64,000 nt of DNA from Amoebidium appalachense. Taxonomy: Eukaryota; Protista; Ichthyosporea. Positions 30,387 through 42,843 of the stretch are shown one piece after another (position 1 is the first letter of the stretch; each line of letters starts with the position of its first letter). The translations under genes and the position numbers were made by a program. Location: contig CAVNZM010000008.1 in the NCBI GenBank assembly GCA_963693365.1, forward strand, positions 1,178,001 through 1,242,000, in the 5' to 3' direction. The notes beneath the pieces were generated by a model that did not search any database, was not told where the DNA came from, and was given only the letters and a program-made list of their open reading frames with translations.

Positions 30387-33300
30387 TCACAGCTCATCCT
30401 TGGCCTTGGTCTCTTTCTTCTGCAATGGTTGCAAGCAGAGTCAAAAAGAGCCACCCGCTAGTGGGGGGAAAAGGGGAAAAAAAAAAGATGGGGAGAAGCT
30501 AGAAGAAGAAAAAAGGAAGAAGAGGAAAGAAAAAAGGGAAGGAATTAAAGGAAATGAAGAAAGAGCAAAGCAAATATAAAAAACACAGCCAAAACACCAC
30601 AACAAAGCCCCGGAGGCGTCTGAATGCAGAGACCACCAAGGCACCCACCAGCAAACACCAGAGAGAAAACACCACATGCACTTGTAGTGTTACCAAGGAA
30701 AATAACGAGAATCATGCAGGGGCGGTGGTGAGGGTGTGTTAACACACGGTGTGTTCATTTTGTGGCACATTGGAGAAGGAGGGGAGAGTCAGTGGAGGTG
30801 GTGGTGATTGTAGGGGATGGGGTGTGTTTGGGAGTATTTGGAGCGGGATGGGGTTTAGAATTGGTTGCAGAGCACGAGGTATATATTCATGACGGACAAG
30901 ACGACATGATTGGCAGATGTGTGTGTGTTAATGTCTCTGTGTGTGCATGTGTGTCTTTTGGGGTAGGTTGGGGGGGAGGGGGAGGGGGGATTTGCACCTC
31001 TGCTTCCTTCTTTGCCTTGGCATGGGCACACTCCCCACTGCAAGGCTTGCCGGCCTTCTTGCACGGACACTCGGTGCCCTCGGCCTGTGTGTGTGTGTGT
31101 GTGTGTGTGTGTGTGTGTGTGTGTGTGTGTGTGTGTGTGTGTGTGTGTGTGTGTGTGTGTGTGTGTGTGTGTGTGTGTGTGTGTATGTGTATGTGTGTGT
31201 GTGTGTGTGTGTGTGTGTGTGTGTGTGTGTGTGTGTGTGTGTGTGTGTGTGTGTTGTGTGTGTGCTTGTGCGTGTGTGTGTGTGTGTGTGTGTGTGCGCG
31301 CGTGTGTGTGTGCACGTGTTTATGTATGTGCACGAAAGGGGTTTTTAACTTGCGTACAGAGTGCAAAGTACACACTCATGTGTAAGGAAAGGAGGGGGGG
31401 GGGGAGGGGGGGGGGGGGGGGTTGAGCGGGGGTTGCAGAGAGAAAAGGCACAGAATAGAGTGTGGGGCAAAGACGGGCTGCATAGACAAGAAGATGAAGG
31501 AAACACACAATAGAAAAAGCCAGTCATCGGGCAGTCACGTGCATACATACCCATGCCACCACGGAAGAAAGAGGAAAGGCGGGAAGGGGGCCGCCGGGGG
31601 GGGGGGGGGGGGGGGGGGGGGGGGGGGGGGTAAGAATAAATGTGTTTGTTCGGAGCACGAAGCACACATTGACAGCGGATACATACAGAGCACAGAAAGA
31701 GTGCGTATGATAGGCAGAACCCATTGGCGGGGGGAAGGGGGACGTGCTAGGTCTACAGATGCTGGCAGAAACAAGTACACGCGTGTGTCTGGTGTGTGTG
31801 CGTGCGTGTCTGTGTCCGTGTGTGAGTGTGCACACGCCTGTGTGTCTCGTGTGTGTGTGTGTGTGTGTGTGTGTGTGTGTGTGTGTGTGTGTGTGTGTGT
31901 GTGTGTGTGTGTGTGTGTGTGTGTGTGTGCCCAGTGCCCACCTCCTTTGCCGCCTTCTCCTCTGCCTCTCTGCGTGCCTTCATGCAGGGACACTCGTGCA
32001 CCTGTCCAAACCCATGTGTGTGAGTGGAAGGCCATAGAAGCACGTGGAAGGGACGGAAAAATGTCGGTATTGGCTGTAACTGTGGGAATATCGACTGTCG
32101 ACATCGCAAACATTGCACCTAATGATTTTAGAACATACCATTATATATCAACATGTGTGGTCCACCCGCTTAACCTGTTCATACCGGCAACTTCACCAGA
32201 TCGACATGGGTTTTGGAGACCGCGGTGTTTGCTGTCTATTGTGAGCGTGAAATTGATAAGAATCAGCAAGATAAAGTCGCAGGAAAGACAAAATAACATC
32301 TTTTCTTTGCGTTTTGCAAAAAAAATAATAACTTTACTTCAGTATTTGGTACCTTGTATATGGCGTAACTATCACTGGGCTGTCAAAGAGCAGCTTGGCA
32401 GCTTGATTTTCGAACCCCGTCAATGCAGATGTCCGATTGGATGAAAAGGCAAACTGAATTCAACGCCCAAAGCCGATTGGCTCGGCTCAGTCACATCGAT
32501 TTCATCTCCAAAACCGTTCCCTAATGTCTGAAGTCGCTACAGAAGCACATAGGAAAAGTATATGAAATAATGACATTTTTTGCAAAACCCACTTAGAAAA
32601 GTATGTATGTAAGACATATACCTGTCGGCGTATACAATTTATTTGGGCTTTTTCTATTGATTTTGAGCTGCGCTGGACTTGTTTCGGTTGTGTCCGACAA
32701 AACAATTAGTGCCGGCTCGAACAGGTTAGACTAATTAACAAAAAGGTCCCTTTTCGTCTCTCTTAGCAATTGCTGGCCTCCGTAGTAGAGCATATACTTG
32801 CAGCTTTTAGCAGTCCTACGGTAGAATTCTCGTTTTTGGTATATCTCGTTGGATATCCGGTGATGCTATCTGAGCGACTATCTCGTTGTGCCTATGGCAA
32901 CTGCACTATATATCAATTCTTTCTGATGCCCAGACCGAAATAAGTTCATTTTTATGGAAAAAAAAACCTTTCTTTATTCCTTTCTATGTGCGTGTGCGTG
33001 TACGTGTGCCCGTGTGTGTGCGTGGCTGAGTTGGAGGGGCAAAAGGGGGGGGGGGGGGGGGGGAAGGACTGCAAACCTCCTCCGCATCTCTCTTGGCCTC
33101 CTTCTTTGCCTTTGCAAACGGACAGCCAGCAGCCTGACAAGTAAGCAATTAGCACACACCATGTGTAAGGAATGCACTTCTGGTGTGTAACAGCCCTCCC
33201 CCCCCCCCCCCCCCCCCCCCCCCCCCCCAAAAAAAAAAAAAAAAAAAAAAAAAAACGATCAATTCCGGCTACGATAGACACGTGCCTGCCTACACGTATT

Positions 33301-42300: not shown

Positions 42301-42843
42301 TGGTGTGTGTGTGTGTGTGTGTGTGTGTGTGTGTGTGTGTGTGTGTGTGTGTGTGTGTGTGTGTGTGTGTGTGTGTGTGTGTGTGTGTGCTTTTTTTAGC
42401 GGAGCAGGTATCCCTGTGTGTGGCTGATGCTAAGATCCAATCAGCATCGATAGTCGCTACATGAGACTGTGCACACTCCGTGAGACCTACCGGAACCAGA
42501 GTAAGGTAAGTCTTCAGATCCTTTGTTAGAAACTCAAACACTAACCAGTGGTTTCTTCCAGGACGGTAAAATGGGAAGTGGGATAAAGTACGAAAGTGAC
42601 CATGTCAAGATCTAGATAGACGGGCCCAAAGGTACACAGTGCGGAGCAAAGCCAGGGGGGAGGGGAGGGGGAGGGGGGGGGGGGGGGGGGGGGGGGGGGG
42701 GGAGTAAAGGGGAGGGGAGGGGGGGGGGGGGAGGGGGAAGGGAGGCGGGCAGAGGGGGGGGTAACCTTTTTCTTGTCGCCAGCAGCTACCAGTGCAGCCC
42801 CCAGCGCCAGAAAGGTGGCGAGGACGCGCAGAATACGCGCCAT
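30387..42843 (-). CDS. Signal peptide + tandem Cys-Pro (heme-regulatory-motif-like) His/Lys-rich repeat protein with C-terminal KDEL, ~420 aa
   Basis: Exons: 42843-42766, 41662-41601, 40951-40863, 40486-40448, 39706-39623, 39047-39009, 38644-38584, 38297-38209, 37631-37590, 37090-37010, 36359-36333, 35894-35834, 35298-35210, 34793-34752, 34334-34248, 34040-33978, 33133-33077, 32001-31942, 31084-30998, 30419-30387. All GT-AG and phase-compatible except one surplus G in the G-run starting exon 2 (62 nt versus 61 nt for its paralogous exons). Starts MARILRVLATFLALGAALVAAGDKKK, ends KKETKAKDEL*. Confidence 0.85.
32174..32725. mobile_element. 552-bp piggyBac-type MITE in an intron of the Cys-Pro gene
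   Basis: ttaa|CCTGTTCATACCGGCA at 32170-32189 and TGCCGGCTCGAACAGG|ttag at 32710-32729: 13/16 TIR match, CC...GG ends, TTAA / TTAG (one mismatch) TSD. Confidence 0.65.
40217..40320 (-). repeat. Poly-C-anchored dispersed repeat, truncated copy
   Basis: Near-identical to the first ~104 bp of the 14537 copy; abuts a poly-G run. Confidence 0.85.

Follow-up and report, generated by a model that had tools for sequence, protein, structure and literature searches.

A gene on the minus strand of a 64,000-nucleotide (nt) stretch of the genome of Amoebidium appalachense, a unicellular relative of animals (hereafter the window; assembly GCA_963693365.1, contig CAVNZM010000008.1, positions 1,178,001 to 1,242,000) encodes a 422-amino acid (aa) protein in which 28 of the 32 Cys residues are followed by Pro. 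Sequence comparisons indicate that this protein is not an orphan but a member of a broad and unnamed eukaryotic family of paired Cys-Pro (CP) repeats. On the basis of a signal peptide and a KDEL retrieval signal, it is predicted to be soluble and to reside in the lumen of the endoplasmic reticulum (ER). We propose, with confidence evenly balanced between yes and no, that it acts as a redox-gated multivalent heme buffer of this compartment.

Gene model and protein architecture

The gene lies in intron-rich eukaryotic DNA. A cluster of Cys-Pro motifs runs from 41.7 to 31.0 kb on the minus strand and, when the six frames were scanned for the pattern [GKE]CP[FYHK], 23 matches were found within the 12,457-nt gene span, all of them on the minus strand, with none in the remaining 51,543 nt. 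The enumeration of splice sites gave a model of 20 exons (27-89 nt) and 19 introns (207-1103 nt, all GT..CAG), which closes with KDEL and a stop codon at position 30387; an AATAAA is located 371 nt past the stop. The binomial probability of finding Pro after 28/32 Cys is ~1e-26. The initial annotation of the window had given exons of 27-89 bp and about 28 Cys-Pro units, with nearly every Cys preceding a Pro: the model reproduces the exon range exactly and the count agrees. The exons, with the evidence for each, are as follows.

42766..42843, minus strand: exon 1, start codon, signal peptide (~residues 1-21) and basic linker (match to the transcript protein P0001, see below; hydropathy)
41601..41662, minus strand: exon 2, module A, CP 1-2; G-run at the acceptor one base longer than the transcript frame allows (splice-site enumeration)
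40863..40951, minus strand: exon 3, module A, CP 3-5 (P0001)
40448..40486, minus strand: exon 4, module A, CP 6 (P0001)
39623..39706, minus strand: exon 5, module A, CP 7-8 (P0001)
39009..39047, minus strand: exon 6, acidic linker (P0001)
38584..38644, minus strand: exon 7, module B, CP 9-10 (P0001)
38209..38297, minus strand: exon 8, module B, CP 11-13 (P0001)
37590..37631, minus strand: exon 9, module B, CP 14 (module-B residue present in P0001)
37010..37090, minus strand: exon 10, module B, CP 15-16 (P0001 for the 5' part)
36333..36359, minus strand: exon 11, 9-codon linker (in frame, bounded by CAG and GT; absent from P0001)
35834..35894, minus strand: exon 12, module C, CP 17-18; 60/61 nt same as exon 7 (splice signals only)
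35210..35298, minus strand: exon 13, module C, CP 19-21; same sequence as exon 8 (splice signals only)
34752..34793, minus strand: exon 14, module C, CP 22; 38/42 nt same as exon 9 (splice signals only)
34248..34334, minus strand: exon 15, module C, CP 23-24 (P0001 for the 3' part)
33978..34040, minus strand: exon 16, tail, CP 25 (GCPF) (P0001)
33077..33133, minus strand: exon 17, tail, CP 26 (GCPF) and a Lys/Glu/Ala helix (P0001)
31942..32001, minus strand: exon 18, tail, CP 27 (ECPC) and a helix (P0001)
30998..31084, minus strand: exon 19, tail, CP 28 (ECPC) and two more Cys (P0001)
30387..30419, minus strand: exon 20, coding part, KDEL and stop (P0001)

With one exon as the query, the only protein retrieved was P0001 (in our numbering), a 322-aa transcriptome open reading frame (ORF) of the ichthyosporean Amoebidium parasiticum from EukProt. 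It is identical to the model across the first 216 and the last 118 residues, thus confirming 14 of the 19 junctions and supporting the co-transcription of the exons presumed in the initial annotation. P0001 is shorter than the model by exactly 100 residues and has 20 CP, as its module B sequence gives way to that of module C in the course of a 31-nt stretch identical in exons 10 and 15; exon 11 and the five junctions from 10/11 to 14/15 are therefore based on genomic splice signals only. The missing module is probably due to the collapse of a tandem duplicate by the transcriptome assembler, a two-module strain allele being another possible source. Alternative splicing was rejected because the switch point falls within an exon. 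A false duplication of module C in the genome assembly was rejected as well, given that the exons differ at 10 positions and the introns in both length and sequence.

Under a strict GT-AG rule, the junction between exons 1 and 2 has one base too many in the window, which leads to a stop at codon 37. Since P0001 reads through this point in frame, and since the introns preceding modules B and C, equivalent to intron 1, are phase 0, the extra base is most likely a miscall of a G-run in the assembly. Candidate micro-exons in intron 1 were rejected, as P0001 has no extra residue at that place.

The protein comprises three modules of eight CP each (exons 2-5, 7-10, and 12-15) and a charged tail with four more, namely two each of GCPF and ECPC, interspersed with Lys/Glu/Ala helices. 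The three modules have a common Cys spacing (12-13, 7, 7, 17, 10, 10-11, 13) and common intron phases, and His residues are conserved within the module. Exon identity between modules B and C is 89-100%, with diverged introns, and module A is more distant from both (61-81%); this indicates that the array has grown via exon-block duplication and that B and C were copied recently. The position after CP is occupied by F in 13 units, H in 5, K in 3, Y, A, and C in 2 each, and V in 1. The residue there is thus aromatic or His in 20/28 units, in line with what the initial annotation had described as usual, and hydrophobic in 18/28, with His in 5 more. The unit CPxFxxxCP[FY] is present three times and the exact decamer CPAFKEGCP[FY] twice. 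No CC, CxxC, or CxxCH (the motif of multiheme c-type cytochromes) was found in the model, which has two CxC; the tail has two CPC and one CxxxC.

The mature protein is 8% Cys and 7% His. Phe and Tyr together amount to about 6%, and the model carries 79 K+R and 81 D+E and no N-glycosylation sequon. On hydropathy, its single hydrophobic stretch is at the N-terminus, with no further membrane segment; the signal peptide call is based on hydropathy and visual inspection. KDEL followed by a stop was seen in both the genome and the transcript. All the parts that had been recognized in the initial annotation (signal peptide, three-copy module, further GCPF/ECPC units, and terminal KDEL) are present in the 422-aa model.

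A eukaryotic family of paired Cys-Pro repeats

Sequence searches with P0001 gave 32 and 15 matches, and a profile search gave 54. All the matches, together with two of the cluster members, P0033 and P0047, formed the set of 89 distinct proteins examined. Across this set, Pro follows Cys in 1468 of 1644 cases and Cys spacings of 6 or 7 are dominant (476). The proteins divide into 43 CPxF-type, 43 CPL-type, and 3 others, and the exact decamer CPAFKEGCP[FY] occurs in 30 of the 89.

The complete 8-Cys module was also found in the closest relatives, P0002 (60%) and P0091 of Creolimax, and the ichthyosporean-type copies conserve the spacing between Cys and the non-Cys positions at 52-60%. Looser CPxF-type versions are present in Salpingoeca urceolata (a choanoflagellate), Physarum, Vermistella, Jimgerdemannia, and corals, the taxa of the family thus including Creolimax, a choanoflagellate, amoebozoans, Mucoromycota, and corals. 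Three of the 43 CPxF-type proteins have a signal-like start, and P0001 alone of these also ends in EL; the other 40, including P0002 and P0091, lack a signal-like N-terminus. The Cys residues are therefore kept in apparently non-secreted forms, where structural disulfides are unlikely. When sequences were shuffled preserving either CP or CPx (300 shuffles each), the Amoebidium-type profile scored better on P0019, P0033, P0104, and P0093 than on any shuffle; on P0033, the score of 29.1 bits was reached by 0/300 CP-keeping and 0/300 CPx-keeping shuffles. The link between the Amoebidium repeat and the coral and amoebozoan repeat is sound, with the reservation that the proteins tested had been chosen among search hits. 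In three metagenome proteins (P0097, P0018, and P0098), the CPxF repeat is fused to a C-terminal domain, which in P0097 is SnoaL-like (PF12680, E 8e-5, below cut-off); P0097 also has a signal-like N-terminus.

In 15 of the 89 proteins, 16-17 CP stand directly ahead of a heme oxygenase domain that includes the proximal-His helix, and a precomputed PF01126 assignment exists for 14 of these 15. The full-length Stylophora protein P0033 contains a full heme oxygenase domain (PF01126, E 1.8e-76), followed by an HO-2-like CP and a C-terminal membrane segment. In coral heme oxygenases, the repeat, exact decamer included, makes up the N-terminal half. The cnidarian N-terminal region (for example XP_022787349.1, from Stylophora LOC111327430) and the paralogs of it that stand alone have the CP-x-F-x(2-3)-CP-[FY] unit and the decamer in common with the Amoebidium protein (pairwise BLASTP 29%, E 1e-15), but they are cytosol-facing, fused to the enzyme or free, differ in long-range spacing, and lack a signal peptide and KDEL; they are themselves uncharacterised. 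In tail-anchored heme oxygenases, the N-terminal part lies on the cytosol side. The fusions were counted as one lineage, the source organism being given for P0033 and its cluster alone. Corals carry a stand-alone repeat protein as well as the fusion (P0019, P0063, and P0033, from Stylophora and Pocillopora), and in Stylophora the close locus numbers of the two, and contigs of equal length, suggest adjacent genes.

The CPL-type proteins have a core of five Cys pairs and one CP. Among the 43, a signal-like start is present in 28, a terminal EL in 35, and the combination in 23; 37 have a named source, in 24 genera that we take to be chytrids. The layout of signal peptide, CP repeats, and xxEL recurs outside Amoebidium, in chytrids. 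Members such as Spizellomyces SPPG_08063 and Rhizoclosmatium HDU79_007822 resemble the Amoebidium protein in their signal peptide, CP modules, and HDEL/KDEL-like tail. They have ~10 CP per module and up to 44 per protein, and their module number changes through duplication, as in Amoebidium. They differ in the CP[LIV]xxxCPYY unit, which occurs 0 times in the Amoebidium model, and in spacing, and are also uncharacterised. When the chytrid profile was run on P0001, 0 and 1 of 300 shuffles equalled the score, and the profile-profile comparison of the two families (hhalign) gave a probability of 96.9%; in the reverse direction, the Amoebidium-type profile on the chytrid protein P0127 failed to exceed all shuffles. 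This suggests a link that is real at the unit level and short of proven orthology, in keeping with a distantly related family. As the Amoebidium module is nearer to the non-secreted CPxF type than to the chytrid type, ER targeting may have arisen twice. Actin, SENP, or RRM domains are attached to four chytrid members (P0115, P0120, P0121, and P0126), which are probably merged gene models.

No named family was found to contain the protein. Pfam gave three sub-threshold matches on P0001 and no family above the cut-off, the CHCH/twin Cx9C family (PF16860) scoring 14.6 bits against a cut-off of 26.4, and one weak match on 19 chytrid members; sequence searches of the PDB returned 0 matches. In the ESM Atlas, there was no usable feature match for P0001 or P0127 (best TM 0.33). 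The AlphaFold2 models are of low confidence (pLDDT 50.6 and 59.1), and the structure comparisons (Foldseek, 0 matches; VIA, best Z 2.2), having such poor models as input, say nothing on fold novelty. Locus scans of viral contigs, metagenome contigs, and prokaryote genomes revealed no relatives, with patterns that were short and that introns would defeat. Searches of the open literature, supplements aside, brought up no paper on the repeat itself, on the chytrid family or the coral fusion, or on the locus tags. The statement in the initial annotation that no described family has this architecture thus holds as far as named families go, with the correction that the protein is one of a broad repeat family rather than unique.

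Proposed heme buffering and the alternative explanations

The known proteins closest in motif are those with heme regulatory motifs (HRMs), such as heme oxygenase-2 (HO-2), ALAS1, Bach1/2, and Hap1. They have, like the Amoebidium protein, a Cys-Pro core that is often preceded by a basic residue or Gly and followed by an aromatic residue, and, like its family, paired motifs able to form a disulfide; the association with heme oxygenase is found again in the coral relatives. The Amoebidium protein differs from them in the number of units (28, against 2-7) and in being targeted to the ER lumen; it has no further functional domain, and its units are paired Cys-Pro loops within a conserved ~90-aa module of eight Cys. 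We infer that it may work like a polymer of HRMs, outside any named family. According to published work, HRMs bind heme via the Cys of CP, often with a distal His (PMC8808069), Cys lacking the Pro is a poor heme binder (bioRxiv 2020.06.09.142125, citing earlier work), and the CP pair of HO-2 is a thiol/disulfide switch at -200 mV governing heme affinity (PMC2742820). By analogy, the Cys-Pro thiolates would bind ferric heme with moderate affinity, with nearby Phe/Tyr and the conserved His as second ligands. Adjacent Cys pairs 6-7 residues apart would act as switches similar to the HO-2 motif pair, holding heme as dithiols and releasing it as disulfides, and heme capacity would be tuned through exon-block duplication of the module. 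The fusion of the repeat to heme oxygenase in corals lends indirect support to the heme idea. Further points in its favour are the Pro that nearly always follows Cys, here and across the family, the hydrophobic residue or His found after most CP, the conserved His, the persistence of the Cys in forms that lack a secretion signal, and the recurrence of the layout in chytrids.

Several observations weigh against heme buffering. The ER is oxidising, and luminal Cys pairs may be mostly in disulfide form. The fusions seen here may all belong to one cnidarian lineage, i.e., a single event, and a repeat that binds the released iron would suit such a fusion as well. On the side of sequence comparison, the targets of the shuffle tests were picked from search hits, and one direction of the chytrid comparison is weak: 9 and 28 of 300 shuffles equalled the score of the Amoebidium profile on P0127. 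Moreover, the strict HRM_t consensus ([NKR]-C-P-[K/hydrophobic]-[LM]) fits 1/28 units and HRM_r 0/28 (both as given in PMC3904948), and in HEK293 cells the mutation of the HO-2 HRMs was reported to leave heme buffering unreduced (PMC8808069).

A rather unlikely but serious alternative is that the protein is a luminal metal store or detoxifier, whose paired Cys and His chelate Zn, Cu, Cd, or non-heme Fe in the manner of a metallothionein of the secretory pathway. The Cys and His content of the mature protein, the Cys pairs spaced 6-7 that dominate the family, the two CPC and one CxxxC of the tail, and weak sub-threshold matches to CCCH zinc fingers in some relatives are all compatible with it, and an iron sink next to heme oxygenase is also plausible. 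Like metallothioneins, the protein is rich in small residues and Cys, and is a candidate buffer built of repeats. Nevertheless, it has neither CC nor CxxC clusters and only two CxC, is targeted to the ER, has no Pfam match above cut-off, and is rich in Phe, with many aromatics and His, whereas metallothioneins lack aromatics. Furthermore, the invariant Pro and the aromatic residue after Cys are unneeded for chelation and are a hallmark of heme motifs. We also regard as unlikely a thiol/disulfide protein without any cofactor, in which the Cys pairs form small disulfide loops of a scaffold or of an ER redox buffer or oxidant scavenger. The even number of Cys per module (8), their regular pairing, the ER location, and the disulfides formed by the CP pairs of HO-2 (PMC2742820) fit this explanation. 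There is no thioredoxin CxxC, however, and the module is kept without a signal peptide or xDEL in P0002 and P0091, as well as on the cytosolic N-terminal part of tail-anchored heme oxygenases. The heme-bound and disulfide states need not be mutually exclusive.

It is very improbable, in our judgement, that we are dealing with a low-complexity repeat protein in another role, e.g., a Ca-binding or holdase-like ER resident or a precursor of cell wall or holdfast, resembling the heme oxygenase extension by convergence at the motif level. The high charge of the model and the low-confidence folds would agree with this, but the conservation of spacing and non-Cys positions with the other ichthyosporean-type copies, and the survival of the similarity to distant members in CP-preserving shuffles, argue against it.

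Genomic surroundings and biological significance

The rest of the window contains both mobile elements and other genes. On the minus strand, an intact 680-codon ORF at 45509-47551 encodes a piggyBac-type transposase domain (PF13843, E 6.7e-38) and is accompanied by a reverse transcriptase ORF at 47846-49879 (PF00078, E 2.4e-27); similar retroelement-like fragments were seen by eye at ~43.8-45.0 kb. A dispersed non-coding element of at least 100 nt has at least three near-identical copies, at ~29880-29990, at 40210-40320 (in intron 4 of the gene described here), and near 14500-14650, and a decayed copy near 29350-29500; it is possibly a small mobile element. A tandem array with a period of ~51 nt, open in two frames, lies at 58284-58948. 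An intron-rich leucine-rich-repeat gene is present at ~51480-54600 on the minus strand (LRR_4, E 5.9e-9, one exon), and exons of a WD40 gene (weak PF00400), which we take to resemble DCAF7/WDR68, at ~59900-63420 on the plus strand. At ~13900-19800 on the minus strand, the exon motifs are presumably those of a PP2C-type phosphatase; the one ORF scanned there had no Pfam match.

Considering the family as a whole, we tentatively suggest, as a possibility we hold with less than even confidence, that the paired Cys-Pro module is an ancient dedicated polyvalent heme-binding domain that eukaryotes put to use in different compartments: joined to heme oxygenase in corals, cytosolic in amoebozoans and Creolimax, and placed in the ER lumen twice, in Amoebidium and in chytrids. 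The identity of cellular heme buffers is described as poorly understood (PMC8808069), and the excerpt of a heme-trafficking review used here, in which MRP-5 loads heme into the secretory pathway, mentions no luminal ER store (PMC10377359). If the protein bound metal, it would be a new ER metal buffer; if it had no ligand, it would represent an uncharacterised repeat family of modest interest. If the heme reading is true, the forms in the ER would represent the first luminal store dedicated to heme, carrying many hemes per chain and releasing them on oxidation of the Cys pairs. The family, small, soluble, and conserved (~190 aa in chytrids), is a directly testable candidate for such a role, and it also points to an overlooked domain on coral heme oxygenases.

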